The notes beneath the pieces were generated by a model. The model saw nothing but the letters and a program-made list of their open reading frames with translations, was not told where the DNA came from and ran no database searches. Positions 7,562 to 60,393 of a stretch of DNA of 64,000 nucleotides are shown one piece after another. The DNA comes from a bacterium (GTDB lineage Bacteria > Patescibacteriota > UBA1384 > CAILIB01): positions 94,100 through 158,099 of the forward strand of contig JBAXRQ010000002.1 of assembly GCA_037131105.1 (NCBI GenBank). Direction: 5' to 3'. A program made the position numbers and the translations under genes. Each line of letters opens with the position of its first letter. Within the stretch, counting starts at the first letter, position 1.

Positions 7562-7727
7562 CTAGGATCTATCTCACGATTGCTTAAAGAATGGAATTTC
7601 CACTGTATGAGACGAAAGTGGTGAGAGACAAGGAGTCGTATCGGATATACGGCGACGAGTCTCAAGCCGCTTACAGTCCGTACGGTGGGAATTCCACTTA
7701 CTTTAGTAATCGTGAGATAGATCCTAG
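7562..7727. repeat. Long imperfect palindrome (~165 bp) with nested inverted repeats, MITE-like.
   Basis: Seen in sequence: CTAGGATCTATCTCACGATTGCTTAAAG at the left pairs with CTTTAGTAATCGTGAGATAGATCCTAG at the right. Inner arms GGAATTTCCACTG / GTGGGAATTCCAC. Sits in the divergent intergenic region upstream of the M16 peptidase gene. Confidence 0.6.
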
Positions 7728-8458: not shown

Positions 8459-8567
8459 AAACTTTTGAGACGTATCCTGAAGGGATACTGTAGACAGGCT
8501 CCCTTGAGTCGATCAGTTTCCTGGGAATGTATGTGCGGCGACTCTCCGGAGTACGTCTCAAAAGTTT
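8459..8567. repeat. Copy of the 'CGTCTCAAGG / CGACTCAAGGG + covarying hairpin' palindromic repeat family (see the 42.6-43.2 kb cluster).
   Basis: Seen in sequence: TTGAGACG-TATCC-TGAA-GGGATAC ... CCCTTGAGTCGATCAG ... CTCCGGAGTACGTCTCAA. Outer arms AAACTTTTGAGACGTA / TACGTCTCAAAAGTTT are inverted repeats. Confidence 0.6.
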
Positions 8568-28108: not shown

Positions 28109-28195
28109 AAATCTCTCCTTCCTAGCCCATAGCCGCGACTAGCTAAATCTGCTACTCTGATAGGTGCATACAAACACTATTTTGATCGTCCTTCC

Positions 28196-40451: not shown

Positions 40452-41096
40452 GGTATATCCCTAGAATGTGGATAAGTAGTGGAAAACGTGGGGAGAACCC
40501 TGTGTATTATATGGGGGAAATGGCGGGATAACTATGGGATAAGTAGCGTCTTTCCCCACCCTCGCCACCTACCTGTGGGCAAACTCCGACTTCTCCCGGT
40601 TCTTTCCGTAGGTTGTCCGAAGGTTCTCCCCATAGTATAGCAGGAAAAAGAACGCTACCGGAGGGGTTTCCACCAGTCTTTCCACATCTCCCCACCCCTT
40701 ATTGTCATTGTTGTTATAAATACTTATTAAAGAGAGAAGAGAACCCATATAATACATCCTATAAAAATCAGAAGGCCCCCCACTAAGTGAGAGGCGTTCC
40801 GTACGGCTAAACATGTTTCTACTCCGGCCAAACCCGTTCTTCGTGCTGGATAAGGAACGCGTCTTTATCCATTAAGATTACTACTGCCAAAGATTGGCGA
40901 TTGTGGTGTCCCATAATGAGCACCACGGCCGGCTCGTCTTTGAGGTTGAGGATTTGATATCCCCCACCTCTTAGTGTAGCTAACTGCTGTGTGGCCCAGG
41001 TGCGCGGCGCTGTAACGACGGTGACTGGTATTTTCATGATTCCTCTCCTTAAAACGTGCCTGGAGTATACGCCAAAACCCTGAAAAAGTCAACCCC
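40452..41096. promoter_or_regulatory. dnaA-dnaN intergenic region with origin-like features (DnaA box plus AT-rich unwinding-element candidate).
   Basis: TGTGGATAA (perfect DnaA box, 40467-40475). Degenerate GGGATAAGT/GGGATAACT boxes at ~40520-40550. A very AT-rich run at ~40700-40770 (TTGTTGTTATAAATACTTATTAAAGAGAG…ATATAATACATCCTATAAAAATC). Confidence 0.5.
40819..41037 (-). CDS. DUF370 (RemA/YaaB-like) small protein between dnaA and dnaN.
   Basis: 72 aa. VVTAPRT… and SLAVVILMDKDAFL resemble the IVSANR… and TRAVIITDSDHVIL blocks of DUF370 proteins. Assignment by eye, moderate. Confidence 0.4.
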   Translation of the reverse strand: MKIPVTVVTAPRTWATQQLATLRGGGYQILNLKDEPAVVLIMGHHNRQSLAVVILMDKDAFLIQHEERVWPE

Positions 41097-42572: not shown

Positions 42573-42575
42573 GAG

Positions 42576-42604
42576 TTATCCACAGGTGTAAAGAGTTATC
42601 CACA
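42576..42604. promoter_or_regulatory. Two consensus DnaA boxes immediately upstream of dnaA.
   Basis: TTATCCACA at 42576-42584 and 42596-42604 (GAGTTATCCACAGGTGTAAAGAGTTATCCACAATA). Confidence 0.75.
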
Positions 42605-42606
42605 AT

Positions 42607-43160
42607 AAACCTAGATGTTCTCTTATTTCGAACTGATCGACTCAAGGGAACCCATCTTATATATCCTTCCAGGATATGTCTCAAGGTCCGAAATAAGAGA
42701 ACATCTAGGTTTACAGTAAACTCCCAGGGCGGACTGATCGACTCAAGGAAACTATATACTTGTACTCCTTCGGAGTACGTCTCAAGGTTCAAATTACCAA
42801 TGCGCATGCAGATACAGGTTAATACCCTGAAAAGTCGTTCGACTCAAGGGAGCCTGTCAGAAAGTACTCCTCCAGAGTACGTCTCAAAGACTTTTCAGGT
42901 ACTTGCATGAAGATTCAGGCTAATACTGAAAACGACTGACTGACTCACTCCTATAAGAAAAGACCGGCAGCCCGACAAGAGGCCTTGAGACGTATCCCGG
43001 AGGGATACTGCTATATGGCCTCACTAAGTCGAACGACTCTTGTTGGGCTGCTGGTCTTTATTACTTCGGAATACGTCTCAAGGTCCATTTCAGGCAAGCA
43101 GCGGCAGATTCAGGTGATGTAGTAATCAAAGCTGTTCGACTCAAGGGCCCCGATGTTATT
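42607..43160. repeat. Cluster of about five to six degenerate copies of a ~100-bp palindromic repeat unit (half-sites CGACTCAAGGGA and a covarying hairpin followed by CGTCTCAAGG).
   Basis: Seen in sequence: unit 1 (42611-42708) is bounded by perfect 20-bp terminal inverted repeats CTAGATGTTCTCTTATTTCG / CGAAATAAGAGAACATCTAG. Recurrent CTGATCGACTCAAGG (42628, 42733), GTTCGACTCAAGGG (42835, 43132) and (G)AGTACGTCTCAAGG (42672, 42770, 42878, 43070; inverted copy at 42985). Internal hairpins covary between copies: ATATCCT/AGGATAT, GTACTCC/GGAGTAC, AGTACTC/GAGTACT, GTATCCC/GGGATAC. Confidence 0.65.
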
Positions 43161-43179
43161 TTTCTGATACTATTTTCTT

Positions 43180-43709: not shown

Positions 43710-44144
43710 CTAACCTGAGACGATCCAGGAAAAGGTCTTAGGGTGGACGATAGCCACACCTTCCCATTCCTTAAGGTCGAGCAGGTCCTTGTCTAGGGTG
43801 ATTATTAGATTCGCCTTGCCAGCTTGGGCGCAAGCTAAGATGTGGTTGTCGTCAGGATCTCGAAGGATGACTTTAGGAACCAGGGGTGCCTCAATGATCG
43901 CTGTTCCCTTTCTAATGAAGTCTAGGTATTTACCAACCTGCTCAGCTGTAAATTCAAACTTAGTACCCATCTTTCTTTTTAGTTCGCCCAGGATATATTC
44001 CGAGCAAAGGACGGTGAATTCACCGTATAATCCTCGTTTAACCAGTTCCTCGGACATCCCGGGACGCAAAAAGGCCGCAATATAGATATTGGTGTCAAAT
44101 ACTACTCGAAGCTGGTGGGAGCTAGCCGAAGATCCGCTCGACAT
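43710..44144 (-). CDS. PIN-domain toxin (PIN_3 / TIGR00305-like VapC family).
   Basis: VVFDTNIYIAA N-terminal acidic motif and DPDDNHILACAQAGKANLIITLDKDL C-terminal PIN_3 block. 4-codon overlap with the upstream RHH gene. Confidence 0.75.
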   Translation of the reverse strand: MSSGSSASSHQLRVVFDTNIYIAAFLRPGMSEELVKRGLYGEFTVLCSEYILGELKRKMGTKFEFTAEQVGKYLDFIRKGTAIIEAPLVPKVILRDPDDNHILACAQAGKANLIITLDKDLLDLKEWEGVAIVHPKTFSWIVSG

Positions 44145-44343
44145 CGTCGTCGGATTCTATACCTAGCTGCTTGGCGATGCGGTCACCTGCTTTCCGTATC
44201 TCTTGCCACTGTGACTCAAAGGAGTATAGATGTAAGGCATCCTTAAAAATCTGACTGCGAGAACGGTTTGAGTCAGTCGCCAGCTTATTAACCTGGGCAA
44301 CCTCGCTATCAGAGAGTGAAATCGAGACAATATTGGCAGGCAT
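44122..44343 (-). CDS. Ribbon-helix-helix (CopG-like) antitoxin partnered with the PIN toxin.
   Basis: Start placed at MPANIVSISLSDSEVAQVNKLATDSNRSRSQIFKDAL: N-terminal beta-strand plus two helices typical of RHH. Immediately upstream of, and overlapping, the PIN gene. Confidence 0.65.
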   Translation of the reverse strand: MPANIVSISLSDSEVAQVNKLATDSNRSRSQIFKDALHLYSFESQWQEIRKAGDRIAKQLGIESDDDVERIFG

Positions 44344-44480
44344 AAAAAGCAATGAAGTGATATATCTGTATATTAATAATATTTATTAATACTGTCAATA
44401 TTCCGTCCCTGTCCCACACCTTGTCCTAAGTAAAAAAATAAGATATAGTAAGGCCTGACTAATTACTCGAGTACTCACAG

Positions 44481-46077: not shown

Positions 46078-46167
46078 GGAGAGATGGCTGAGTGGTCGAA
46101 GGCGGCGGTCTCGAAAACCGTTATGCGGGCAACTGCATCTAGGGTTCGAATCCCTATCTCTCCGCCA
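46078..46167 (+). tRNA. tRNA-Ser (anticodon CGA), type II with long variable arm, CCA encoded.
   Basis: GGAGAGA (acceptor) … anticodon loop CU-CGA-AA … long variable arm TATGCGGGCAACTGCATC … T-arm TAGGG-TTCGAAT-CCCTA … TCTCTCC-G-CCA. Acceptor and T stems pair perfectly. Confidence 0.85.
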
Positions 46168-46170
46168 AAG

Positions 46171-46200
46171 TAAAAAGAGTATCTAAGGATACTCTTTTTA
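46171..46200. terminator. Bidirectional intrinsic terminator after tRNA-Ser.
   Basis: AAAAAGAGTATC-TAAG-GATACTCTTTTTAC. Confidence 0.6.
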
Positions 46201-46209
46201 CTTTGTGCT

Positions 46210-46365
46210 TCGCGATAGGGATTCGAGTCCCGCTTTGACCTGCTGGAGCAGGTCGGAATGTTCGCGGAAGCGAGTGACCGAATCCCTATCTTCCATGGAG
46301 TGGTGATTGCTTACTCGGTCAAGGAGTGGAGAAGGCCCGGCCGCCATCCCTATCTCTTCCTTATG
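46210..46365. repeat. Three partial copies of the tRNA-Ser 3' end (one inverted, two direct), att-site-like remnants.
   Basis: GCGATAGGGATTCGAGTCCCGC (inverted copy of GGGTTCGAATCCCTATC), CCGAATCCCTATCTTCC and CATCCCTATCTCTTCC (direct copies of CGAATCCCTATCTCTCC). Confidence 0.55.
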
Positions 46366-46431
46366 TCCCCTACCTTACATAATTCCGACACATTGCTGCT
46401 ACACTTAGGTCAAACATCCTAACCACCCCCT

Positions 46432-46800
46432 ATGGAAAGGCCATCCTTTCTGGGAAGCGCTCTGGAGCACGAAGCGTCAGTGGAATCCACTCAGGTTAGG
46501 AGCTTCATAGCGGATCTACTCCCTCAGGCCCTGGTGAGAATTGAGGGTACTATACTCCTGGCTGAGGTGGATAGAGGTGGAGCCAAGCGGGTTGGCGAAG
46601 AAATCTGGGGGGCTTATATTGAGATGATGGCCCAAGATGCCTTATTTTCTAGTGTTCATTATGAGCCTGGCTTTATATCAGCGGACCTGGTGAAGCCTGA
46701 GTCGGGTATCACCTCGTTACGGGTACGTAAGGTGGCCTCTACTCCTCAGGCTACATTACCGACAGCATATACCGGTCAACCGGTGCGTATTCATCAGTGA
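46432..46800 (+). CDS. Hypothetical protein.
   Basis: 122-aa ORF. No family recognised. Its 3' end overlaps the convergent spermidine-synthase-like gene by ~50 nt, so it may be spurious. Confidence 0.3.
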   Translation: MERPSFLGSALEHEASVESTQVRSFIADLLPQALVRIEGTILLAEVDRGGAKRVGEEIWGAYIEMMAQDALFSSVHYEPGFISADLVKPESGITSLRVRKVASTPQATLPTAYTGQPVRIHQ

Positions 46801-48241
46801 GTACTGGCTGGCTGGTCTCTACCTGTTTAGTCCAGAGATGATTAAAATACCCCTGGATCTCTTTGTCGGGACTTACGAATGAAGGCTTTGTGGGGCTTTT
46901 GAGTGCTACTATCATCACATTTTGGACATCGGTACCGTTTTCAGGTTTGTTGACCGCAAAAGCGTAGACCTGGGGAAATACCGACTTATAGGTGGCGTAC
47001 TCGGCTTGGAAGAACTGACTTTTGGGGCCGTTGATAGCGGAGATAACATTGAGGATCACCACTCCCTTTGGCGTGAGCCTGTCGTACATGCGCTGGACCG
47101 CTTCCTGGGTGGTCAGCTGGTAGGGTACCGACATTGATCTAAAGGCGTCACCGTAGATGACGTCATAGGTCTGGGTGGTCTCATTGAGATAGGTGCGGGC
47201 GTCAGCGTGGAAGATGTTCAGCCGGTCAGAATCCTTCAGGTTGAAATACTGCTTGGCTAGCTCGGTCACCTTGGGATCGATCTCCACCACGTCCATCTTA
47301 GCCTCTGGATAATGGGTTAGGAAATCCTTGGGATAGGAATAGGCCGCCCCACCCAGCATCAGTCCTCTACCCTGGGCAATGGCAGGGTTCAGAGTGCTGT
47401 CCAGCCTGTAATAGTTTGTGTAGGGAAAGGTAAGCTTGTCACCGTTAAGGTACATGGCAGAGCTAAACTCATTGCCGATCTGCATGAAGCGAGCTTCTTC
47501 AGTCTGCCCTGGAAAATAGCCAGAATAGATCCAGATACGAGAATATTGCGAGTCAGTATCGATAAAACCCTGCTGGGCCAGGACGAGGTCATGAACACGG
47601 AAGATGACCAGGCCGGCTACTAGTATGAGCGCCAGTCCAGTCTGCAGAGGCAGGCTGCGCCGGGTGAATCCGACGGCGAGGAGAGAAGCTGCCAGTAAGA
47701 TAGCGGCTACCAGAAGTAAGACGGTGGTGGTGCGTAGATACTCGATCAGGAAAAAGCCGGCTAGAAAGGTGCCGGTGATGCTCCCTAGGGTAGAAATAGC
47801 GTAGAGATTGCCCACGGTGCTACCTGTGTATTTAAGGGTCTCCATCTTCAGTTTCACCGCGTACGGCGATACCATGCCCAGCAGTACGGTAGCAGGGGCG
47901 AAGAGCACCAGACAGACTACCACCGAGCGGATATAGAGGGATTGGGTCGCGGCTGTGGCAAGGGTAAAGAGACTTCCCTGGATATAAGGTATGCAGGCCA
48001 CGAGTATGCCTGATACCAGTAAAAGGCTGGCTAAGACCTGGTAAGAAGGCCTGCGGTCGGCTAGGCGGCCACCCAGCCAGTATCCTAGGCTTAGGCTTCC
48101 CAGTATTATTCCGATCAGGCTGGACCAGACTACTATAGTGGTGCCCAGGTATGGAGAAAGCACCCGGGAGCCGTCTAATTCAAGGATCATGCCGGCAGCG
48201 CCGACCAAAAAGACGAGAATCTCTAGGAAGTATTTTTTCAT
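46751..48241 (-). CDS. Fused polytopic membrane domain plus spermidine-synthase-like (PABS) aminopropyltransferase domain.
   Basis: N-terminal ~220 aa with about seven hydrophobic helices. C-terminal GGAAYSYPKDFLTHYPEAKMDVVEIDPKVTELAKQYF…IYGDAF… matches the PABS/SpeE fold (GGGDG-like, D(V)VEID). Confidence 0.75.
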   Translation of the reverse strand: MKKYFLEILVFLVGAAGMILELDGSRVLSPYLGTTIVVWSSLIGIILGSLSLGYWLGGRLADRRPSYQVLASLLLVSGILVACIPYIQGSLFTLATAATQSLYIRSVVVCLVLFAPATVLLGMVSPYAVKLKMETLKYTGSTVGNLYAISTLGSITGTFLAGFFLIEYLRTTTVLLLVAAILLAASLLAVGFTRRSLPLQTGLALILVAGLVIFRVHDLVLAQQGFIDTDSQYSRIWIYSGYFPGQTEEARFMQIGNEFSSAMYLNGDKLTFPYTNYYRLDSTLNPAIAQGRGLMLGGAAYSYPKDFLTHYPEAKMDVVEIDPKVTELAKQYFNLKDSDRLNIFHADARTYLNETTQTYDVIYGDAFRSMSVPYQLTTQEAVQRMYDRLTPKGVVILNVISAINGPKSQFFQAEYATYKSVFPQVYAFAVNKPENGTDVQNVMIVALKSPTKPSFVSPDKEIQGYFNHLWTKQVETSQPVLTDEYAPVDRYMLSVM

Positions 48242-48413
48242 GGTTTCATTATACCTTCTTGGAGCTATCTATTGCACCATTGCATTTTTTGGGAAACAGG
48301 TGTACAGTTAAGCAGTCTTTTAGAGACGTGTCTCCGTCTTGCTGGGTCGAGGGTAGGTAGGAAGACAGAATCGTAGAAACAAGTGTAATTCGTTTGAACT
48401 AAATTTTTCCCAT

Positions 48414-48692
48414 ATGTCCAAGAAGCTATACGTTGGTGGTCTTCCTTATTCCACCACCACTGAGGAACTAGAGGCTGCATTCGCCCCTTTCGGTACCGTT
48501 GAAGAGGCTATCATCATCTCCGACCGTGAGACCGGCCGCAGCAAGGGTTTTGGTTTCGTTACCATCACCGAAGACAAGGGTGCTGACGACGCTATCGAAG
48601 CTATGAACGGCAAGGACTTCAATGGTCGTCCTCTTACCGTCAATGAGGCTCGTCCTAAGGAGGCTGCTCCTGCTTACCGCTCTGAGCGCTAA
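48414..48692 (+). CDS. RRM-type RNA-binding protein.
   Basis: RNP-2 (LYVGGL) and RNP-1 (KGFGFVTI) motifs. 92 aa. Confidence 0.85.
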   Translation: MSKKLYVGGLPYSTTTEELEAAFAPFGTVEEAIIISDRETGRSKGFGFVTITEDKGADDAIEAMNGKDFNGRPLTVNEARPKEAAPAYRSER

Positions 48693-48711
48693 TCAGTTTT
48701 CAGCTTTAGGA

Positions 48712-48745
48712 TAAGAAAGGGACCCCCTAGGGGGTCCCTTTCTTT
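48712..48745. terminator. Intrinsic terminator after the RRM gene.
   Basis: AAAGGGACCCCC-TA-GGGGGTCCCTTTCTTT. Confidence 0.7.
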
Positions 48746-48778
48746 GCCATATCCTCCCCTTCTCCCACAAAAATGAAT

Positions 48779-48990
48779 GATCTTCGCTGGTGTGGGCCCA
48801 CACGGCGGAGAACGCTCAGATCCTAAGACCGCCTTCCGAGGCAGCGTCGCTTCCGGGCTAACAGTTAAGGAATCGTCCTCCCTGCCACATCTACAATGTG
48901 GAAGATCTTCGCTGGTATGAGATTCATACGGCGGAGGCCGCTCAGATCCTAGGACCGCCTTCCGGCGGTCCGTCGCTCCCGAAGCGGCGT
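48779..48990. repeat. Two tandem ~100-nt structured repeats (candidate small RNAs) between the convergent RRM and pilB genes.
   Basis: Unit A GATCTTCGCTGG-GTGTGGGCCCACAC-GGCGGAGAACGCTCAGATCCTAAGACCGCCTTCCG… and unit B GATCTTCGCTGG-GTATGAGATTCATAC-GGCGGAGGCCGCTCAGATCCTAGGACCGCCTTCCGGCGGTCC…. Flanks are conserved while the hairpin stem covaries (GTGTGGG/CCCACAC versus GTATGAG/TTCATAC). Each unit also carries a tiny ATG…RRRxLRS* ORF (17-18 aa) whose hairpin-encoded residues are not conserved. Confidence 0.55.
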
Positions 48991-50510
48991 TAGGCCGAGG
49001 TAACTCGATAGATCTCTGACTCGGTGGTCATCCCCCGCTTTACCTTGTCCAGGCCGTCATTAAGCATGGAGACCATACCGCCACGCTCGGCGATCTGTTC
49101 CAGGCCTCCCTGGTCACGGTGCTGCATGACCGCTTGCTCGAACTCAGTGTTGGGGCAGAGTACTTCGCCGATGACTATGCGGCCGGAGTACTCTGGTTTC
49201 TCAGCGGTGGTTCCCGGTACCAGTTTGCGCACCAAGCGTTGGGCGACGACCATCTGGATACTGCCGGCCAGCAGGAACGGCTCGATTCCCATCTCCAGGA
49301 AACGGGTATGGGCAGTGACTGCGTTGTTGGTGTGCAGGGTGGAAAGCACCAGGTGGCCGGTAAGGCTGGCATTCAGGGCGATGGTGGCGGTCTCAGGGTC
49401 CCGAATTTCACCGATCATGACAATGTCAGGGTCCTGACGCATGGCCCCACGCAATCCTTCCGCAAAGGTGAAGCCGTGCTCGCTGTCGATCTGGCTCTGT
49501 TGCAATCCAGGTAGGCGGTACTCGATAGGATCCTCCAGGGTAATAATCTTCTTCTCGGGCGAGTTCAGTACTTTGAGCAGTGCGTACAAGGTAGTGGACT
49601 TTCCTGATCCGGTAGGTCCCGTCACAATGATTAGCCCGTAAGGCTTCTTGATGATCCTATTGATGAGTCCCTGGTTATATTCTGAGAATCCCAGCTCCTG
49701 GATGGTAAGGGTCTGCATGTCCTGGCGCAGTATTCTCATGACGATCCCCTCTCCGTAGCCAGTCGGGATGGTGGCGACGCGCAGGTCGGCGTTGATGCCT
49801 TTGTCTTGGAGGCCGAAGCGACCGTCCTGGGTGTTGCTCTTGTCGTCCAACTTCATCTTTGACTGGACCTTGATGCGGGAGACTAGGCCGTGATGCTGGG
49901 CCATGGGAAGCTCCAGAACCTTCTGTAGTACGCCATCTATGCGGAAGCGGATCTCCAGGACCTTCTCGCTAGGCTCGAGGTGGATATCCGAGGCCTGGGC
50001 ATTGAAGGCAGCGGCTAGAATAACATCTAGTAGTTCTGTCGTACTGGCCTTACCCGCCTGTTCGCGCAGGTCGTCCAGGGTACGGATGTTGTGGAAGTAG
50101 TCTTTTTTCTGCTCCTCGGTGCGGTTCCGGGAGAACTGAGCCTCTTCTTCCACCCGCTCATTACGGAGTTTCTGATAGGCGTCTATGAGCACATTCATAC
50201 TGGTTGCCGAGACTACGGTGAGCTCCAGGTCCTTATGCCAGTCATTCGCAAGGGCTATCAACTCCTTGTGGATCTCCTCATCGTCAGGGCGTTCTACCGC
50301 CATATGTACCTTGGTAGATGACCGCACGTAGGCGGCGTAGCGGCGCTTGGTAACCGTTTCTATAGGGACAAGCTCCAATACGTCCAGGTTAAAGGGGAAG
50401 TCGTCCAGCTGGGTAGTGGTCATTCCCATGTTGGCGGCCATGGCGGCGGCCTGGTGCTCTTCCTTCTCGCGCTGGAACTGCCTGAGTGAGACGTCTAATG
50501 AGGCGGGCAT
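48990..50510 (-). CDS. PilB/GspE-family secretion ATPase (type IV pilus / T2SS-like assembly ATPase; VirB11 superfamily).
   Basis: Walker A (IIVTGPTGSGKSTTLYALL), Asp box, Walker B and His box. ~506 aa with an N-terminal GspE_N-like domain. Confidence 0.85.
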   Translation of the reverse strand: MPASLDVSLRQFQREKEEHQAAAMAANMGMTTTQLDDFPFNLDVLELVPIETVTKRRYAAYVRSSTKVHMAVERPDDEEIHKELIALANDWHKDLELTVVSATSMNVLIDAYQKLRNERVEEEAQFSRNRTEEQKKDYFHNIRTLDDLREQAGKASTTELLDVILAAAFNAQASDIHLEPSEKVLEIRFRIDGVLQKVLELPMAQHHGLVSRIKVQSKMKLDDKSNTQDGRFGLQDKGINADLRVATIPTGYGEGIVMRILRQDMQTLTIQELGFSEYNQGLINRIIKKPYGLIIVTGPTGSGKSTTLYALLKVLNSPEKKIITLEDPIEYRLPGLQQSQIDSEHGFTFAEGLRGAMRQDPDIVMIGEIRDPETATIALNASLTGHLVLSTLHTNNAVTAHTRFLEMGIEPFLLAGSIQMVVAQRLVRKLVPGTTAEKPEYSGRIVIGEVLCPNTEFEQAVMQHRDQGGLEQIAERGGMVSMLNDGLDKVKRGMTTESEIYRVTSA

Positions 50511-50526
50511 AGAGGTGATTTAGTAG

Positions 50527-53500
50527 TTACCAGCGGACATGTATGCGGTCCCAGAAACTTGAATCGGGGAAGAATCCGGCGCGGTAGTCTGTGATTGGCG
50601 TGTAATACTTGTACCCGTTCTTTTCCTGGACGGCATTGGTATTTGCCCTATCGGTAAGAGCGCCATACCCGTAGCTTCCATCCTGCTGCCATGGGGCTGG
50701 TTCTGACAGATATCCTTCCAAGGAACCCAGATCGCCTGCCGGATGACTAAATACTTGGGATACCCAGAGGGAATTCGGGTGGGTCTGTGAGATGCCTGCC
50801 CATTTCTCTGGCATCTGCAACAGGTCAAGTAGTACGCTGTGGACGTTCTGCTGGGCTACTGCCTTGACTCCGGCGGCGTAGGTCACGGGATTCTTGGCGT
50901 CGAAGTCACTCTGGGGAAGATTATTGGCAGCCAGGCTTGCTCCAGCATTGGGCGGATTCGGAGCGCCAAGCGGCCAGTAGCCGTCTCCGGTAGCTCTCTG
51001 CACAACCACTACCTTATATACTCCGAACAAGTTGACCAGGATGAACTGCAGCAGCATTACCGGTGCCAGGGCGGGGCAGATGAAGAGATCGACTATGGCA
51101 CCCACCAGGAGATCCAGGCTGCCCGGTACCAGTCCCAGGGAAGTTTCCAGGCTGCGCAGCTGGTCGCCGAATACCGTGGTGATGGCTAGGGTGATAAGGA
51201 AAGCGGCGGCATTATCCTTAGCGCCCTGGCTGGCGTTGGTGGTAAGGGTATGGACTGCCTTGTAGACGTTGTAGAGCTTCTGGGCGGTACCCGGTTTGAA
51301 GCCGAACATCTTGTCACCGAAGGCGAACAGCTTCTGCTGACCTATCTGGGTAAGCAGGTTTGACATGCTAGGCACGGGCTTGCCATCCTTTCCGAGCTTG
51401 CCGCTGCCGTTATGGAACACGTCGGAACTGAAACCGCTGGAAGCCCAGCCGGCGAAGGCCTGCATAAACTGGGGGGTATTCTGGGCGCCGATAAGCTCGT
51501 TCAGCTTGGCAGTCACAAAGCCCCCCACCTTGGCCATGATGGCGTCAATGGCGGCCTGTTTCAGTCCATCCGCATAGGCAGAGGCGTTCTTAAAGCCGTT
51601 GGCGGCGAAGTCCTTCAGGGTGGCTATGTCGGCGGCGGTGAGGGCGCTTCCCAGGGCTCCTGCCAGGGCAGAGTTGATACCGTACTGGGCCAGCATGGTC
51701 ATTCTCTCGGCATCGGTACCGTGGGTAAGTGTCTCAATGAAGCCTGCCGGGATGTTCTTGTCCACCGAGAACAGCAGGGTGTCATAGATGGCGTTCTGCA
51801 TCTGGGACTTTACGTCCTGGATGAGGCTCTTCTGGAAGTCCTTCTTACCGATCTCCTTGATAGCGTTGAGCTCAGGCCCGATACCGGGGTCGTTCAGACA
51901 GTTGTCCAAAGAGCCGCAGGGGGCATTGGGGTACTTATCCTTGAAATAGCTGTTCAGGGCGTCCTTGCCTGCCGCCTCGACAACCGCCGTCGATAGGCTG
52001 AAGTCCTTCAGACTGTCTCTGAGGTTCTGGTATTGCAGGATAAAGTCGTCAATACGGTCGGCAACCCCCTCAAGCTTGCCTAGACCCTTGTTAAGGGTGC
52101 CGATGAGTTCCTGGACGGCAATGTCGGTAAGGCTGCTGACGTCGCCAGAAAGGATGGCCTGCAGGTCGACATGGCCTATGAGCCCCGGTAGGTTTCCTCC
52201 CCCCAGCTTGGCAATCTCGGCATTGATCATGCTGTTCAGGCTGTCCTGGAGAAGATCGCGGGCAGCAGTCTTATTGAAATCGAGTGAACAGCTTTGGGAG
52301 CCAAAGGTAATGTCGCAGTTGGCCGAGAGGAAGGCATTGCGGAAGCTGGCGGTGAACCCGTCGATGTCAGCTTGGTCAGCAACATTGAATATCTTGCTGG
52401 CTAGCTTCTGCATGCCGATGGTAAGCGCGATCTCTGGTGCCTGGGACGGGTTTAGTACCAGATCGGTAATGGTACCTGCAGGTAGCTGCAGCTTTGACTC
52501 CATGTCAGCGCTCCAAGTCTGGGCAAGACCTAGGTAGAGTGCCTGACCGTTGATGTTGCTGAAGGCGTTTGAAAGAGACCCAAAGCCTCCGGCCGGAGCA
52601 TGGCACGATCTCAGGCTGCTGCTCCCCACGAGGTAACCGTACAGGTCGCATCCTGTGGCATTCTGGATGGCGGCAAGGAGGGCTTGGGCGCTGGCCGGCG
52701 CCCCATTGGCATTAAGATTGGCCTGGGTTTGGGCTAGCTGGTGCTGGGTGGACGGAGTATACAGGACGTCGGCGGTGATCTGGCCGGTAATAAAGCTCTT
52801 AAGAGAGTCACCAGGAGTGGCCCCCAGCCCGTAGAGGCCGTTCAGCTGGCTGGTCCGCGACTGCAATCCGGCAATCTGGTTAGCATAGTCATCGTCATTG
52901 ACCGAGTATTCGGACTTTGTGTTGTTGACTAGATCACTAATGGCTACGTAGCCGCCGTCATTGGTCAGATCATGCAACAAGGTGTCGAAGGAGTCCTTAT
53001 CTTTCTTGACCAGCGGATTGGTAATGATGCTATTTGGTGAAGTCTGCCAGTAGGGCGAATTCGAGTCACTGATCTGGGAAATGACATCCTTACGTGTCTT
53101 AGCAATATAATTGGTCAGGATCCGGTCAGCCTTAGGGTCTGCCTGGGACGGATCGATACTTACCCGAGAGCTGATTCCGCTAAGGATCTTCAGGGCCGCC
53201 TGTACAGAGGGTGGGTCCTGAAGGCCTAGGCTGGTAAGAATGGCGCCGGGATCATTAAGATCGACTACCTGCTTGAAGTCTCCTTTGAAGCTGTTGGCGA
53301 CCAGTCCGAGGCCCTGGCTGAGAAGAGAGTTTCCGAAGTTCTGGTTAAAGGTGCCTGGAGTGGTGATGTCAAAGCCGGCTGGGAAGCCCAGGTCGCTGGC
53401 TACCGCCTGTATCCCCATCTGGCCCATGAAGGCAAAGCGTGCCCCGCTTGCCTCGGCAGCCGTACAGGTCTGAGGACTGTCGGCTGTACCACAGATGGGA

Positions 53501-56500
53501 TCAGCCAGGTTGATAGCGGTGCCGCTCTTCCAGTCCATCCGTTCATCGATAAGCTTCCCTCCGATCTTGGTGAGAAGATTCTGGCTCTGTCCGGTGAAAA
53601 GGCTGACTAGGTCGTTTGTAGAAACCTTGTAGCGTTCGTCATAGCTACTGTTTCCTGAAATGAGGTTGGTAAGTAGCTGCTGGGAGCGCTCGGTTATTGT
53701 TTTGGCACCGAAGGATAGGGCGTCTTCATCATTGATAGGTTGACTCTTCTGAGAAGCGTCAGCACGACCCACGGACATCTCCAGGCCAGCAAGGCTACTG
53801 TTGCCGCTTGTGAGCCAGCCAGTCAGGCTGCCGCTAGGAAGGTTGAGTGACTGGGTGAGCTGACAGTCTGCGGTATGCTCTGAGAAGTTGGTCAGCTGGC
53901 TGTCCAAGGCGTTAGCACGTACGGGGTCCGAAGCATCGCTGGTCTGACGTCCTGAAAGAATGGCCTGCTTCAGGGTGTCAGCGGCGCTGCAGGATCCGCT
54001 GCCATAGGTGTTGCCTGTGGACAGGGATGCCTGAGGGGCTAGAGAGCTTTGGCTATTGCCGTCCTGGGGAGTGTCCAGGCCCCGACCCACGATTGCTTCC
54101 TGAATGACGTGTGCGGCCTTCATGACGTCCTGGCGGCCTGACTCGTTGGCCGGGGCTGAGTTCAGGATGGCTGACTCGATATCGACTATTGCCTTCCTAA
54201 CTGCTTCCACTCCGTTCGGAGCCGACTTGTCCTTGAAGGTAGACAACGCTGGAGTGGCTCCGGCAAGTCCTCCCGAAGAAATCAGGTTACTTACCAGCCC
54301 CTGAAGTTGAGAATAACGGGCGTAATAGAAATCATCCCCACTTGGATCCGCGACGTCAGGGGGCGTCGAGCTCCCTGATCCAGACTGGGCCTGGAGCTGG
54401 TCTGGGCGCAAAGGCAGGTCGGTGCGTCCCCAGACTCCCTTGAGCAGTTCAACGGTACCTATTCGGTCAAATACCTGACTAGCTTCCTTACGGTAGAAGA
54501 TACGGTCCATGTCGGCAGAATCCAGCAGGCCGTTGGTACTGAGGAGGGTGCTGACTCCCGTAGAAGTGAAGTCGCCTTGGTAGGGGGTGCCGTCACCGTT
54601 AACCTCGTTAAAGAGCTGGTGCTGGGCCACTTTGTCGGTCGTGAGGGCGTGAGTGGCAACCTGCTGGCCGATAGTCTTCAGGATGCCGAGGCCGCCTTTC
54701 AGAAGCGTGGCGACGGGATCTCCGCTTCCTGGCTGGACACTGCTGATCTGACCCTGGGGAGTAAAGGTTACCGAAGTGCTGGTCAAATTCAGGCTGGCGC
54801 CCATGCCTCCCTGTCCGATCTTGTCGAAGTATCCCAGTACGCCGTCATCCAGCTGGTGTAGTTGGGAGATGATGGCGCTCAAAGCGTTCTGGGCCTGCTT
54901 GGTACTGGTACTTGATACGTATCCCTCGGTGGAGGCACCTGTGGTAGACAACTGGGAAAGACGCTGCTGGGCGGCTTGGAACTGGGTGAGCCACCCTGAT
55001 GACCAGTTGGAAGGTGTAGGGTCGTTGACTGTGTTGAAGGTGTTCTTCAGAACGGTGATCCTATCGGCCTGGGTCTGGGTGGGCGGCAGATGATAGGTAT
55101 TGCTCCAGACTACATTCTTGATTTGGGGAACAAGGGTATCTGCCTGGGCCTGGGTGAAAGCGCCGGCTCTGACCAGAGCCGTAATGTTAGGATCCCCTGC
55201 TGGGGCCTCCGGAGGTACGACCAGAGGCTTTCCAGGGACTATGACAGTCGTGAGTGGAGGAATAGTGGTAGTACCGGAGGTAGTGAGAAGGCTGTAGAGG
55301 TTGTTCTGGTTACAAATGTCCAGAGGGTTGCTCTCCTTGAACTGCGACAGAACAGTAGTGCAGTCGAGGCCGTTTGCGGCGATAGAGGTAACTCCAACAA
55401 GGGGAAATGGTACGCCGGCGAAGGTTCCGGTCCGGGTAACTGTTTCGGTCTGGTCGGCAGCCGTAGCGGTAGTAGTGAAGCTACCGATGTCCCCTTGAAT
55501 GGTGCGAGTACCTACTAGGTTGAAATAATCACTCAGTGACTTCTGTCCTCCGATCAGTTTGGCGGTGGGCCGGTCAAAGTCAGCCTGGGCGGTGGGCACC
55601 CCGAAGCTCGGTGTGCTAGTACCGGGTGATATATAAGTGAGGTAGAGGTCCTTGTCGAGCTGGTCGGCATTGGTGTTGGAGAAAATGGCCTTAGCAGCCG
55701 GTCCGGCGGCGAGAAGCTGGCTGAAGTCCGATACTCGCAGGCTTTGAGGGGGCAGATTATAGAGCTCCTCGATCCGCCCTATGCCGATGGCCTTGGCAAT
55801 ATCGGCAGCGCTCTGGAGAGAGAAGCCAGTGCTTGGGCTGAGGGTACCGGGGGTTACATGGAAGACATTCTCCTCAAGATAGCGGCTTCCTATCGATGTC
55901 TGTATGGCGGCCGGAGTACTACCTTGTACGGAATCGGCGGGTAGGTTCAGCATTTGCTCCAGGGTGGACTGGCCGACATTCTGGGTTATGGTCCCCCCTT
56001 TGTTGACGAGGGCATTGGGGAGTAGGCCGAGCTGCTGGCTTAGGTAGGCTCGTCCGAAGTTGTCCAGTGTGGAGGAAAGGTCAGAGCCCTTTAGTCCCCC
56101 GGTTGGCCCTCCTATCAGCTGACTTAATAACGAGGCGCCGGTCTGTTTGACCAAGTCCCCGATATTATTCATCGTGATGCCGGAGATATTGACGCTCGTC
56201 TGCAGGTCGAGGTTGGCCAGGAAGGTATCGAAGCCTCCCTTGAATGCGTTCAGTGCTCCCTGGTAGACAGTGCTGATATTCGGCAGGCCGCCAGACTGGG
56301 AGATGCCCTCGTCAGTCTGCCAGGCTACCTTGGTGGGGAACTGGGTGTACTGATAACTTACCTTGTCTCTTCCTATTCGTTTCTTCTCGGTGATCTTGGT
56401 GGTGACCCGGATGTTATCGATAGCGTCGATATCAAGGGCCTTGGCCAGGCAGGTGCTTCCGTGCGGCGGGTTTACATCATAATAATGGGCCGAGAAGATA

Positions 56501-57474
56501 CCACCATTACATTCATTGCGTGGTGCTGTTGAGTCGTCATTGGCAGTGAACTCCTTGTTCACCCCACCGGTCTGTAAAATCTGCCCTACGTCGATAAGCT
56601 CATGTCCTGCCCCTCCTTCAGAGGTAGGAGTGACCAGGTAGGTGAGGGTCCTCAGGATGCGGACGTCGGCCTTCGGGGCGTCCCAGCAGTTGTTTACCCA
56701 GGCTACGTCGTCGTAGTAGAGGGGTTTCCAGGCCTTTATGTCCAGGGAGCAGCCCGGGTCACTTTGTTGCTGGGTGTTTCCGTCAGAGTCCTTTATGGCG
56801 ACTCCCTTATCATCTATCTTGACCTTGGTCTCATCGCAGGCATTGCCATCCAGCTTCCGGCACGGCTCGCCTACCAGACCATAATAGTCGAGTGGGTTTT
56901 TGAAGGTTATCTTATTGGTAGGGAGAGTTGCGGCAGTCAGGACGCTCTCGGTGAGGCCACTGATGCCAAGTGGAGAAAGGAGGCGGCTAGCATCCTGATT
57001 ACAGACCCACCACCCCCCATCGTCTGCTGCGCCGACTCGGGCGATTTGGCTTTCGGTATCGGGAGGATAGGTCGGGCCGATATCATCCTTGGTGACGAAG
57101 GTCATTCCCCCATCTGGATCCTCGCTATATTTTAAGTAATCCTGGTACGAGAGCTGGTCGTTCTCATCCAGGACACTAGCACTGTCCGGGCTGCCAGTAT
57201 CATTAAGGCCGCTGATATCGTCAGGGCTTAGCTTACTGTACTCGGTATTTCCGTCGACGTAGTTTGGATCGGCGCTAGCGATGCCCTGGCCAATGGCGTT
57301 GCAGCGCTGCGAGAGCTCGGATTTGGTAAATGCGGTAGAGGTCGGGGCGGCCTGCACGGCAGCTGTCGGCATGGCTGCGGAGAGGAGAGGAACGTACACC
57401 ATTGTCTGGGCCATGACAATGATCAGGGTGGTCTTCGTTCCGCGACGAAATTGAGAGAAGAAAGAGGCCATCAT
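50527..57474 (-). CDS. Giant (2315 aa) secreted/surface protein with an N-terminal signal peptide, long Ser/Thr/Gly/Asn/Gln-rich low-complexity body, and C-terminal hydrophobic (TM) segments.
   Basis: Uninterrupted 6.9-kb ORF. N-terminus MMASFFSQFRRGTKTTLIIVMAQTMVYVPLLSAAMPTAAVQA is signal-like. C-terminal …AAAFLITLAITTVFG…LLVGAIVDLFICPALAPVMLLQFILVNLFGVY… are TM helices. No enzymatic motif recognised. Confidence 0.7.
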   Translation of the reverse strand: MMASFFSQFRRGTKTTLIIVMAQTMVYVPLLSAAMPTAAVQAAPTSTAFTKSELSQRCNAIGQGIASADPNYVDGNTEYSKLSPDDISGLNDTGSPDSASVLDENDQLSYQDYLKYSEDPDGGMTFVTKDDIGPTYPPDTESQIARVGAADDGGWWVCNQDASRLLSPLGISGLTESVLTAATLPTNKITFKNPLDYYGLVGEPCRKLDGNACDETKVKIDDKGVAIKDSDGNTQQQSDPGCSLDIKAWKPLYYDDVAWVNNCWDAPKADVRILRTLTYLVTPTSEGGAGHELIDVGQILQTGGVNKEFTANDDSTAPRNECNGGIFSAHYYDVNPPHGSTCLAKALDIDAIDNIRVTTKITEKKRIGRDKVSYQYTQFPTKVAWQTDEGISQSGGLPNISTVYQGALNAFKGGFDTFLANLDLQTSVNISGITMNNIGDLVKQTGASLLSQLIGGPTGGLKGSDLSSTLDNFGRAYLSQQLGLLPNALVNKGGTITQNVGQSTLEQMLNLPADSVQGSTPAAIQTSIGSRYLEENVFHVTPGTLSPSTGFSLQSAADIAKAIGIGRIEELYNLPPQSLRVSDFSQLLAAGPAAKAIFSNTNADQLDKDLYLTYISPGTSTPSFGVPTAQADFDRPTAKLIGGQKSLSDYFNLVGTRTIQGDIGSFTTTATAADQTETVTRTGTFAGVPFPLVGVTSIAANGLDCTTVLSQFKESNPLDICNQNNLYSLLTTSGTTTIPPLTTVIVPGKPLVVPPEAPAGDPNITALVRAGAFTQAQADTLVPQIKNVVWSNTYHLPPTQTQADRITVLKNTFNTVNDPTPSNWSSGWLTQFQAAQQRLSQLSTTGASTEGYVSSTSTKQAQNALSAIISQLHQLDDGVLGYFDKIGQGGMGASLNLTSTSVTFTPQGQISSVQPGSGDPVATLLKGGLGILKTIGQQVATHALTTDKVAQHQLFNEVNGDGTPYQGDFTSTGVSTLLSTNGLLDSADMDRIFYRKEASQVFDRIGTVELLKGVWGRTDLPLRPDQLQAQSGSGSSTPPDVADPSGDDFYYARYSQLQGLVSNLISSGGLAGATPALSTFKDKSAPNGVEAVRKAIVDIESAILNSAPANESGRQDVMKAAHVIQEAIVGRGLDTPQDGNSQSSLAPQASLSTGNTYGSGSCSAADTLKQAILSGRQTSDASDPVRANALDSQLTNFSEHTADCQLTQSLNLPSGSLTGWLTSGNSSLAGLEMSVGRADASQKSQPINDEDALSFGAKTITERSQQLLTNLISGNSSYDERYKVSTNDLVSLFTGQSQNLLTKIGGKLIDERMDWKSGTAINLADPICGTADSPQTCTAAEASGARFAFMGQMGIQAVASDLGFPAGFDITTPGTFNQNFGNSLLSQGLGLVANSFKGDFKQVVDLNDPGAILTSLGLQDPPSVQAALKILSGISSRVSIDPSQADPKADRILTNYIAKTRKDVISQISDSNSPYWQTSPNSIITNPLVKKDKDSFDTLLHDLTNDGGYVAISDLVNNTKSEYSVNDDDYANQIAGLQSRTSQLNGLYGLGATPGDSLKSFITGQITADVLYTPSTQHQLAQTQANLNANGAPASAQALLAAIQNATGCDLYGYLVGSSSLRSCHAPAGGFGSLSNAFSNINGQALYLGLAQTWSADMESKLQLPAGTITDLVLNPSQAPEIALTIGMQKLASKIFNVADQADIDGFTASFRNAFLSANCDITFGSQSCSLDFNKTAARDLLQDSLNSMINAEIAKLGGGNLPGLIGHVDLQAILSGDVSSLTDIAVQELIGTLNKGLGKLEGVADRIDDFILQYQNLRDSLKDFSLSTAVVEAAGKDALNSYFKDKYPNAPCGSLDNCLNDPGIGPELNAIKEIGKKDFQKSLIQDVKSQMQNAIYDTLLFSVDKNIPAGFIETLTHGTDAERMTMLAQYGINSALAGALGSALTAADIATLKDFAANGFKNASAYADGLKQAAIDAIMAKVGGFVTAKLNELIGAQNTPQFMQAFAGWASSGFSSDVFHNGSGKLGKDGKPVPSMSNLLTQIGQQKLFAFGDKMFGFKPGTAQKLYNVYKAVHTLTTNASQGAKDNAAAFLITLAITTVFGDQLRSLETSLGLVPGSLDLLVGAIVDLFICPALAPVMLLQFILVNLFGVYKVVVVQRATGDGYWPLGAPNPPNAGASLAANNLPQSDFDAKNPVTYAAGVKAVAQQNVHSVLLDLLQMPEKWAGISQTHPNSLWVSQVFSHPAGDLGSLEGYLSEPAPWQQDGSYGYGALTDRANTNAVQEKNGYKYYTPITDYRAGFFPDSSFWDRIHVRW

Positions 57475-58547
57475 AGGAAGGATTTGTTGACCAATAGGTC
57501 GTGGCCGCCGCCGTTTTTGCCACCACCCTGCTTCCCAAGGGTGCTAAATACGAAGTCGGCGGTTAAAACGTGTTTAAAGCGCCCAGTATTAGCATTCTTT
57601 ATGCTTCCGGCCGGCCAGGTGATTGGGTTGTTGACGTAGAGGCTCTTGTTGGCGGGATTGTATCCGGTCACCACTACGACGTGCACGGTGCCATAAAACG
57701 TTCCCCTCGTATAGATGTTGAAGGGATAGCCTCCGTTGATCGATTTCACGGCTAAATTGTAGAGCTGGTTAGCGCTACTTGCTGAGGCAAAGTCATAGTT
57801 AGCGCTCTTTCCGTATTGCCTGGCTACGGCATTTACATAGGAGGGGCTTGATACTGCGTTGAAAACTTCCCCATCTGGGTGCGCGCTAGTCAAGTGGCCC
57901 TTGGTGATTTCGACATGGTTTGATAAGGGGGTTCTGGAGTGATCCCCATGCGCCAGATACATCATGATCATCAAGGCCGAGGTCATAGCGCACCAGTTAT
58001 GTCCACCCTGGATCAGGAGAGGAACGTCTAGGCAAGTACCACCTTGGTCACAGGCCGTGGCTCCCCCAGGAAGGAGCTGATTGAGAGTCTTGCTATCAGC
58101 GATGAACTGTTTGGCGGCAGTCGTGCGCTTGTTCTTGCTGACCGTATCTATCGCCCCTATGGTCTGGCGCACAATGTCGATTTCCCCGACCATTCTATCT
58201 ATAAGAGGGATGAGCTCCGTGGAAGTGATGTTGGCATAGCCGGGCTTCTTCCCCTGGATATTACCCTTGATTGTCTGGAGGCGTGCCTTGAGGGCGTCGA
58301 GCTGGGCGGCATTTGCCAGGAGGAACTTGCCAGGGTCATTGTAGAGGGCCAGCTCTGACATGAGCTGAGCAATTGCAGGATCGGAGGGATCTGCCGGCTG
58401 CACGGCGGTATCACCAGTAGGACAGGGACCGGTACAGGTGTTTCCCGATCCAAAAGAGGCCGCCGCCAATAGAAAAAGCGTAGCCAGCATGATGCCGAGC
58501 ATGATGTAGATGTTGGCGCCTCCCCCCTTCTTTTCTGGTTCAGCCAC
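57471..58547 (-). CDS. Membrane-anchored C39-like (papain-fold, Peptidase_C39_2-type) cysteine peptidase domain protein.
   Basis: N-terminal TM (IYIMLGIMLATLFLLAAASF). …QGGHNWCAMTSALMIMMYL… (Cys) and …YGTVHVVVVTGYN… (His) spacing fits the C39-like fold. By eye only. Confidence 0.45.
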   Translation of the reverse strand: MAEPEKKGGGANIYIMLGIMLATLFLLAAASFGSGNTCTGPCPTGDTAVQPADPSDPAIAQLMSELALYNDPGKFLLANAAQLDALKARLQTIKGNIQGKKPGYANITSTELIPLIDRMVGEIDIVRQTIGAIDTVSKNKRTTAAKQFIADSKTLNQLLPGGATACDQGGTCLDVPLLIQGGHNWCAMTSALMIMMYLAHGDHSRTPLSNHVEITKGHLTSAHPDGEVFNAVSSPSYVNAVARQYGKSANYDFASASSANQLYNLAVKSINGGYPFNIYTRGTFYGTVHVVVVTGYNPANKSLYVNNPITWPAGSIKNANTGRFKHVLTADFVFSTLGKQGGGKNGGGHDLLVNKSFL

Positions 58548-59886: not shown

Positions 59887-60393
59887 CTACTTTTTCGGAA
59901 CTGCAGGGGCGGCCGGCTTCGGAGTAGGTGCGGCCACTGGGAAGGCGCTGCCTTGGAGAGTAACGCTATTGGCTATCTGGTGCAGGATAAAGCTGACCGA
60001 GGCGAAGACTATGCCGCCTATGACTATTCCGATGATCCGCTGCTTAGCCTTCTTGGACTGCTCTGGTGAGACGCCTCCGAACATATACTGGACGCCAGAA
60101 AAGGCGATGGCGATGACTGCCACGAACAGAACCAGTGGAGAGATCTGCCTAATGATCTGGTCCATATACTGTGGGAAGGTGGTATTGTTCGTACAGCCAC
60201 TGACCAGGACCCCCTGGAAGCAGGGCTGGGAGGTGGGCTGGGGCGGTAGAAGGGATCCGACCGGACCCCCCACAACAGGAGTAGTCCCAGCAGCATAGAC
60301 ATGGGTCACACTTAATACGGCCAAAGCGTAGAATGAAGCGGCAAGTCCTACGAGGCGGGAGGCAGATCTATGGGTCATAGACTCATGATACAC
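59887..60393 (-). CDS. Small membrane protein with VirB2/TrbC-pilin-like architecture (signal peptide plus two hydrophobic helices).
   Basis: 168 aa. Signal-like N-terminus; two hydrophobic segments (ISPLVLFVAVIAIAFSGVQYMFGG … IIGIVIGGIVFASVSFIL) separated by a short polar loop; Pro/Ala-rich C-terminal tail. Architecture only, no sequence-level proof. Confidence 0.4.
   Translation of the reverse strand: MYHESMTHRSASRLVGLAASFYALAVLSVTHVYAAGTTPVVGGPVGSLLPPQPTSQPCFQGVLVSGCTNNTTFPQYMDQIIRQISPLVLFVAVIAIAFSGVQYMFGGVSPEQSKKAKQRIIGIVIGGIVFASVSFILHQIANSVTLQGSAFPVAAPTPKPAAPAVPKK

Follow-up and report, generated by a model that had tools for sequence, protein, structure and literature searches.

Two copies of a short element beside pilB

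The spacer at 48693-48989 of a 64,000-nt stretch of DNA from an uncultured member of the Patescibacteriota ("the window" below always means this whole stretch; its contig, 283 kb long, is metagenomic, ENA ERZ27300165) separates a gene for an RRM_1 RNA-binding protein from the convergent gene for a GspE/PilB-type ATPase (pilB). Directly after the RRM stop codon stands a perfect palindrome. Judging by its shape, it is a probable bidirectional intrinsic terminator, serving the RRM gene on the + strand and pilB on the - strand; it is absent from the list returned by a consensus terminator scan of 48300-49300. Beyond the palindrome lie two copies of an element of about 84 nt, here called units A and B, and the stop codon of pilB follows 5 nt past the end of the unit B core (Table 1). 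This element, its conserved structure and its possible nature are the subject of this study; we tentatively read it as a family of structured RNA modules.

A sequence-only reading of the locus had described two tandem repeats of about 100 nt, placed just after a strong terminator and abutting the pilB stop codon. The terminator and the abutting stop codon lie where that reading put them, and so do the two units. Their cores are 88% identical and align with a score of 45, compared with 4.4 +/- 2.0 in shuffles; the direct-repeat blocks found by a repeat search are spaced 125 and 126 nt; and a 26-nt core (CGCTCAGATCCTANGACCGCCTTCCG) occurs exactly twice in the 64 kb, against 0 expected from shuffles. 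The extent and arrangement of the repeat have to be revised. A gap of 42 nt separates the two cores, their flanks are not detectably alike (143/1000 and 976/1000 shuffles reach the observed scores), and TRF called no tandem array for the units. Thus, these are two neighboring copies of an element of about 84 nt rather than a head-to-tail repeat of about 100 nt. A duplication artefact of assembly, also raised in the sequence-only reading, is ruled out, since an independent Logan assembly (SRR7053528) gives the same sequence and arrangement of both units.

A third copy and a strand-asymmetric hairpin

Searches for relatives brought up one true homologue outside the window, a full-length copy in JGI metagenomes (L092:2406-2489, 87.7 bits). 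The pattern search of these metagenomes gave four matches in all; the other three are taken as chance matches, because they lie inside long open reading frames (ORFs) and match the seeded block alone. The sequence of the L092 copy also occurs on L095, a Logan contig of 25 kb from SRR7053528; the same run includes the window's pilB locus. On this contig a lone copy lies in the radC-folD spacer, which is 260 nt long in L095 and only 16-32 nt long in three relatives (L096-L098). L095 very probably represents another locus of the window's genome or population, since it comes from the same sample, has a similar GC content (54.4% vs 55.0% in the window), correlates with the window in tetranucleotide composition at r = 0.94 (relatives reach at most 0.56), and has a second short repeat family in common with it. 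The known copies number 2 in 64 kb and 1 in 18 kb. Their cores are 82-88% identical, neither the left nor the right flank is common to the window and the radC-folD locus, and the boundaries of homology are sharp. In the closest relative of the pilB locus (L089), yidC, tRNA-Ser, a terminator and pilB are directly adjacent; together with the short radC-folD spacers, this marks both element loci as insertions relative to the related genomes.

Beyond these three copies, the collections were empty of the element. Rfam 15, read at the gathering threshold and at E <= 10, returned no family over the unit cores except for one weak match to CC2171 (14.8 bits vs a gathering threshold of 75, E = 1.6, 48718-48893, - strand); its remaining weak matches (E >= 0.34) lie either in the terminator palindrome or at the stop codon of pilB. 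An exact-pattern scan of GTDB species representatives gave 0 matches, BLAST against phage and plasmid collections found no copy, and in IMG/VR three element-specific patterns had no match and a fourth matched generic GC hairpins only. Neither the window nor 23 loci around PilB homologues yielded another copy with a covariance model of units A and B (R1), and R1 and a model R2, run with filters off, found no extra copy in the window or in L095. The relatives at hand are distant: the closest full-length PilB among 5.8 billion sequences is 70% identical and the best partial one 78%, identity to PilB among GTDB species representatives is at most 47%, and RRM homologues are <=72% identical, which leaves no close relative for comparison. 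Scanned with R1, seven PilB-relative loci (63-78% identity) and GTDB PilB loci hold no copy, and in RadC relatives the spacer is too short to hold it.

The sequence-only reading had proposed that the units act on the secretion operon to which pilB belongs, and had suggested a covariance-model scan downstream of pilB homologues. That scan yielded no copies, the seven PilB-relative loci lack the element, and the sole other copy lies in the radC-folD spacer, so a link to the secretion operon is unsupported. The element as we know it consists of three copies in one uncultured Patescibacteria lineage and is not tied to pilB.

The three copies (unit A, unit B and L092), two of them adjacent, were compared for structure. 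RNAalifold predicts two hairpins for them: helix 1, which is bulged and has 14 pairs, and helix 2, a GC hairpin of 7 pairs. On the + strand helix 1 is paired in 41/41 cells (100%), whereas its mirror on the - strand is paired in only 81%, because U.G pairs turn into C.A. Two pairs have changed on both sides, C-G to U-A in the basal stem and G-C to A-U in the apical stem; there are also three one-sided wobble-type changes and an invariant U.G. All of the substitutions in helix 1 (7/7) keep pairing, and random substitution in simulations left every pair intact with a probability of about 0.012 from B to A and 0.004 from B to L092. The first 40 nt of the element hold 7 changes between unit B and L092. 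Based upon these patterns, helix 1 is probably a selected, + strand-specific structure. This agrees with the earlier view of the hairpin as a maintained structure, and the apical hairpins are as then described (GTGTG-GGCC-CACAC and GTATGA-GAT-TCATAC). The description of the two units as textbook covariation went further than they allow. One compensatory pair (G-C to A-U) does distinguish unit A from unit B, but their other hairpin differences lie in the loop, and the third copy was needed to make the case.

Downstream of helix 1 lies a 24-nt block, CTCAGATCCTA[A/G]GACCGCCTTCCG (CUCAGAUCCUARGACCGCCUUCCG), that is invariant in the three copies apart from one A/G position. Helix 2 is less regular: unit B alone has it intact, L092 shows one A.C mismatch, and in unit A most of it is disrupted; 76% of cells are paired on the + strand and 86% on the - strand. 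The 3' arms of both helices read CGGCGG in the window units, not in L092. An alternative pairing, GAUCU:AGAUC, is possible, and both of its sides are invariant. A pseudoknot GGCGG:CCGCC was rejected, since L092 has AAUGG in place of GGCGG without compensation. No hammerhead, HDV-like, twister or pistol ribozyme core fits the units, by eye or in Rfam.

Table 1. Coordinates of the element copies, their parts and other repeats (window positions unless L095 is named)
Feature	Position	Strand	Remarks
RRM_1 RNA-binding protein gene	48414..48692	+	92 aa; same direction as units
Perfect palindrome	48713..48744		16+16 nt, 100% complementary; GC stem GGGACCCC/GGGGUCCC, A-tract and T-tract flanks
Unit A core	48776..48858	+	83 nt; 106 bits with model R1, 90 bits with model R2
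Unit A helix 1	48781..48811	+	UCUUCGCUG-G-UGUG[GGCC]CACA-CGGCGGAGA; bulged hairpin with U.G pairs
Invariant block, unit A	48815..48838	+	CTCAGATCCTAAGACCGCCTTCCG
-10-like hexamer TACAAT	48892..48897	+	found by eye; putative promoter element
Unit B core	48901..48984	+	84 nt; 108 bits with R1, 108 bits with R2; best-preserved copy
Unit B helix 1	48906..48937	+	UCUUCGCUG-G-UAUGA[GAU]UCAUA-CGGCGGAGG
Invariant block, unit B	48941..48964	+	CTCAGATCCTAGGACCGCCTTCCG
Unit B helix 2	48952..48971	+	GGACCGCC-UUCC-GGCGGUCC; 8 bp
GspE/PilB-type ATPase gene (pilB)	48990..50510	-	506 aa; stop codon 48990-48992
Third element copy	L095:10649-10732		single copy, radC-folD spacer
Second repeat, single copies	8459-8518; L095:16289-16356	+ (window copy)	
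Second repeat, cluster	42600-43170	both	42631-42684, 42738-42819, 42825-42887
Second repeat, further copies in cluster	42983-43032, 43059-43115, 43132-43164		

Possible nature: RNA modules or a dispersed DNA repeat

The structure is probably functional. As to what it is, the reading we favor, with a confidence somewhat short of even, is that the units are a small, lineage-specific family of structured, non-coding RNA modules of about 84-90 nt, read from the + strand. These modules would be either sibling small RNAs (sRNAs) or a repeat that is co-transcribed with host genes. Copies of these paralogous structured RNAs would have spread to a small number of intergenic sites, each directly 3' of a gene in the same direction. 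They consist of three parts: a bulged helix 1 of 14-15 bp, kept by compensatory and wobble changes and fully paired on the + strand only; the invariant pyrimidine-rich 24-mer; and the less well kept GC helix 2, whose 5' arm and loop are the 3' half of the 24-mer. Helix 1 would provide a stable 5' structure, and the invariant single-stranded block may be the surface that a protein or RNA partner recognizes. Expression could follow two routes. First, the copies could have weak promoters of their own, for which the TACAAT of unit B stands at the right distance. Second, they could be carried within a host transcript, for example in the spacer of a radC-folD operon; radC and folD in L095 both run in the + sense of the element, which should therefore be transcribed in that sense at this locus. 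We infer transcription of the units, a hairpin that forms in RNA and not in single-stranded DNA, and whatever partner it may have.

LhrC1-4, OmrA/B, PrrF1/2 and Qrr are examples of sibling sRNAs. Tandem or multi-copy siblings of this kind are a known theme (PMC4211561). The element resembles them in its paralogous units of ~80-110 nt, some adjacent in one intergenic region, and in combining a conserved structure, a conserved single-stranded or loop block, a variable part and a pyrimidine-rich motif; several paralogous copies with conserved structure are at hand (n=3, helix 1 100% paired). It differs from them in having neither a Rho-independent terminator nor a convincing promoter, in a block that is not complementary to start regions (64 kb of targets), and in belonging to a host genome without Shine-Dalgarno sites that a CU-rich seed could mask.

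Several observations weigh against an RNA-module family. The consensus scan of 48300-49300 listed no promoter and no terminator. By eye, -10-like hexamers stand 4-6 nt before GATC in the copies, and the TACAAT of unit B ends 6 nt before the GATC at the foot of helix 1, but those of unit A (AAAAAT) and L092 (CAGAAT) are weak; only unit B thus has a good -10-like hexamer, and none of the three copies has a -35. Helix 2 is followed by GUCGCUCC, not by a U-tract, and does not form an intrinsic terminator. In the window, the units are cut off from the + strand gene upstream by a strong terminator, so that the only transcript expected from the context is the 3' untranslated region (UTR) of pilB, on the - strand. 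Targets are equally elusive. In the 64 kb, the best duplex between the invariant block and any of 45 start regions has -22.3 kcal/mol, compared with -26.9 +/- 2.6 for shuffles, and the block pairs worse with these regions than 99% of its shuffles do. In the 20 nt upstream of 45 start codons (e.g. 50511-50530, 57475-57494 and 28176-28195), Shine-Dalgarno sites are rare (2/45 genes vs 12.6% of random positions). The structural evidence has its own limits: the folding z-scores of the cores (-0.4 to -1.75) mark their energy as unexceptional, 60/500 shuffles reach the observed covariation score, the - strand gives a slightly better helix 2 with a GGAA loop, and the covariation statistics are thin because only three sequences, two of them adjacent, could be compared.

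The main alternative, which we regard as rather unlikely, is that the units are a selfish or neutral dispersed DNA repeat of the REP/BIME-, MITE-, BOX/ERIC- or IS200/IS605-PATE-like kind. Here the hairpin would be recognized as single-stranded DNA by a transposase encoded elsewhere, and the copies would serve the host in no way beyond incidental effects on neighboring transcripts. Much of what is known of the copies suits such a repeat: both loci are insertions compared with the closest relatives, an insertion polymorphism between related genomes of the type seen with MITEs; their homology ends sharply in unrelated flanks; two copies sit side by side, as in BIMEs; and the element is absent from relatives and public collections. 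The scans that found no promoter, terminator or target point the same way, as does the presence in this genome of another short hairpin repeat family with several copies in both orientations. T.G wobbles are tolerated in DNA hairpins too, and YYAC precedes each copy (CCAC, CTAC, TTAC), recalling the target tetranucleotides of IS608-type elements. Against this, only 3 copies are known, 2 of them within an unbiased 64 kb, and an alignment of the three reveals neither inverted repeats at the ends nor a duplicated target site. The 49 window ORFs run against Pfam included no transposase, RAYT or reverse transcriptase. The copies are all co-directional with the gene upstream, and the compensatory changes, together with the long non-palindromic invariant block, point to continuing sequence-specific selection.

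Known repeat families can be compared feature by feature. REP/BIME elements are imperfect palindromes of 20-40 nt with a conserved head tetranucleotide, present in tens to hundreds of copies and accompanied by a RAYT gene; they and the BOX, ERIC and Correia-type repeats are often co-transcribed and act as RNA hairpins. Like all of these, the element is a short structured extragenic repeat 3' of genes with side-by-side copies, and its presence varies between relatives. It is unlike them in its far lower number of known copies and in lacking terminal inverted repeats and a target-site duplication; compared with REP in particular, it has no GTAG-type head, no RAYT was seen, and it contains a long asymmetric invariant block within 84 nt. 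PATEs of the IS200/IS605 family have similar subterminal hairpins, a conserved 5' target tetranucleotide and a Y1 TnpA in the genome. The element shares with them two hairpins in ~90 nt, strand asymmetry, extrahelical bases, T.G pairs and the YYAC before all three copies. It departs from them in that its two hairpins are not alike in all copies and only three copies are known; the window holds no TnpA or TnpB near the element, and no Y1-transposase domain occurs among the same 49 ORFs. Overall, we place the element among the short structured intergenic repeats or sRNA paralogues, as a very small member of this broad class and not as a system of a new kind.

A functionless origin appears improbable. 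On this account the units are a neutral leftover of local duplication or gene conversion and the conservation of the hairpin is an accident of a small sample, which would suit a set of three sequences only, a shuffle control that is not extreme and folding z-scores that are ordinary. Yet the flanks have been randomized while the cores remain 82-88% identical, and the substitutions in helix 1 preserve pairing without exception.

It is distinctly improbable that the units work from the other strand, as RNA modules of the pilB 3' UTR that stabilize or regulate the secretion-operon mRNA, which was the second option of the sequence-only reading. No pilB terminator precedes the palindrome, so that the mRNA should carry both units antisense; helix 2 is paired in 86% of cells there and has a GGAA loop of the GNRA type, and the region of unit B folds on the - strand at z = -3.1. 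Helix 1, however, is the sole covarying helix and has conserved C.A mismatches on that strand, the third copy is opposite in sense to such an arrangement in its host operon and far from any pilB, and the loci of seven PilB relatives do without the element.

We consider it very improbable that the units represent an undescribed RNA class of this Patescibacteria lineage whose CU-rich block CCGCCUUCCG, in the loop of helix 2, mimics a pyrimidine-rich motif 5' of start codons. Such an RNA would sequester, as a decoy or sponge, a factor for translation initiation or RNA binding, such as the neighboring RRM protein; nothing in the evidence points to it specifically. A pyrimidine-rich motif (CCTCC, CTTCC or CCCTC) stands directly 5' of the start in 10/45 genes, compared with a background of 8%. 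Many genes also have a -10-like hexamer (TATAAT, TATACA or TATACT) 5-15 nt before the ATG, which implies very short or absent leaders. An sRNA directed against Shine-Dalgarno sites was rejected, as the genome lacks such sites and the block pairs poorly with start regions.

Coding by the units is the least credible account. The mini-ORFs noticed earlier (MNDLRWCGPTRRRTLRS and MWKIFAGMRFIRRRPLRS) exist, and the suggestion that they are not conserved peptides was correct: between unit B and L092 their frame has 7 non-synonymous codon changes against 1 synonymous, and it is shifted in unit A by a 1-nt indel in the loop. In another frame the peptides of unit B and L092 are alike (MEDLRWYEIHTAEAAQILGPPSGGPSL vs MNDLRWCETHTMEATQILGPPSGGPSL), but none of the six frames has an excess of synonymous changes, and the units hold no conserved small ORF of the type I toxin or micro-peptide kind. 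That they are small peptide genes or decayed 5' gene fragments, with a 31-aa ORF of unit B in this other frame (MEDLRWYEIHTAEAAQILGPPSGGPSLPKRR) as one candidate, has scarcely any probability in our view: its frame is common to unit B and L092 with 22/27 residues matching, loosely resembles the start of an HTH_17 domain and has the best ratio of the six (4 synonymous vs 4 non-synonymous, tied with one - strand frame), but the loop indel breaks it in unit A, the DNA homology of unit B and L092 stops at codon 27 and leaves unrelated C-termini, Pfam gives no match even at E <= 10, phmmer against 1.84 billion representative proteins finds no homologue, tblastn across the collected loci finds only the element itself, and base pairing explains all nucleotide changes in the hairpin region. 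On the - strand, frame 1 is open for 106 codons across 48693-49010, a stretch that includes both units and the terminator. The frame contains neither a stop nor a usable start, matches nothing in Pfam, lies out of frame with pilB, and is probably a chance opening in GC-rich sequence.

Several other candidates were tried and rejected. ToxI-like repeats are tandem repeats of ~35-45 nt directly upstream of a co-directional endoribonuclease toxin gene; a type III toxin-antitoxin RNA of this kind does not fit, as the gene downstream is the convergent pilB and the unit measures 84-125 nt. The template and variable repeats of a diversity-generating retroelement do not fit either: the differences between the units are not adenine-specific, and the Pfam survey of the window ORFs found no reverse transcriptase. 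TIGR arrays, known from candidate phyla radiation (CPR) bacteria and phages, consist of many dual-spacer units that are processed into 36-nt RNAs with box C/D motifs, and they adjoin a Nop-domain Tas gene (PMC12045711). The units resemble them in having conserved and variable parts and in occurring in a Patescibacteria genome, but were rejected as a TIGR array on account of the 125-nt period, two copies, box C/D motifs that do not lie on one strand, and no Nop-domain gene among the 49 ORFs. An att repeat derived from tRNA-Ser was rejected as well, since the local alignment score of 8.0 is about that of shuffles (means 8.0-8.5, both strands).

The non-coding RNAs and repeats of Patescibacteria, which are ultra-small and host-dependent, are almost unexplored. 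A structure maintained by compensatory changes in a streamlined genome of the ~1-Mb class suggests selection. If the units are expressed, they would be among the few candidate regulatory RNAs of this group; if they are a mobile repeat, they would mark recent genome plasticity near the replication origin. In either case, the element is a lead for metatranscriptome studies of these samples.

The origin region and other repeats

The window spans the replication origin, as indicated by recF-dnaN-dnaA, by rpmH-rnpA-yidD-yidC-tRNA-Ser and by a minimum of the cumulative GC skew at 44-46 kb. Two perfect DnaA boxes (TGTGGATAA) lie just upstream of dnaA (~42573-42610), and one (TTATCCACA) lies upstream of dnaN (40452-40480). 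The units lie on the leading (+) strand side, ~6 kb away from the origin. A pair of genes for a PIN-domain toxin and a ribbon-helix-helix antitoxin (43710-44352, - strand) sits between the origin region and rpmH.

The stretch from tRNA-Ser/yidC to pilB (window 46165-48990) is a hotspot of variation. The closest relative (L089:1192-1427) has nothing there, and other relatives carry PemK and PIN toxin modules, APH, or HD/NUDIX/Fic genes (L087:1541-4900, L085:11533-18940). In the window it contains ORF122, a 496-aa membrane spermine-synthase-like protein and the RRM protein. The adjacency in L089 and the accessory genes found elsewhere identify the segment of ORF122, spermine-synthase-like gene, RRM gene and two units as a variable insert. 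On the other side, pilB is the last gene of a cluster (50527-57474 on the - strand, 57471-58547 and 59887-60393) that encodes a 2315-aa protein without a Pfam domain, a C39-like peptidase and a TrbC/VirB2-type pilin. The layout is kept in relatives, with giants of 2360-3158 aa beside the ATPase, and the cluster more closely resembles a type IV secretion or pilus-like apparatus than the operon of a classical type IV pilus.

The second dispersed repeat, of ~55-60 nt, reads TTGAGACGTAT(T/C)C(C/T)GAAGG(A/G)ATACTGT.AGACAGGCTCCCTTGAGTCGA and has no Rfam match at the gathering threshold. At least six copies crowd the origin region upstream of dnaA, and its hairpin shows compensatory changes (GTATTC/GGAATAC, GTATCC/GGGATAC and GTACTC/GGAGTAC). 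It could represent iteron-like origin repeats or another REP-like family. Finally, the window contains two inverted-repeat pairs, one with 40-nt arms that are 80% complementary and 86 nt apart (7562-7601 / 7688-7727) and one adjoining dnaA with 28-nt arms that are 96% complementary and 52 nt apart (42606-42633 / 42686-42713).

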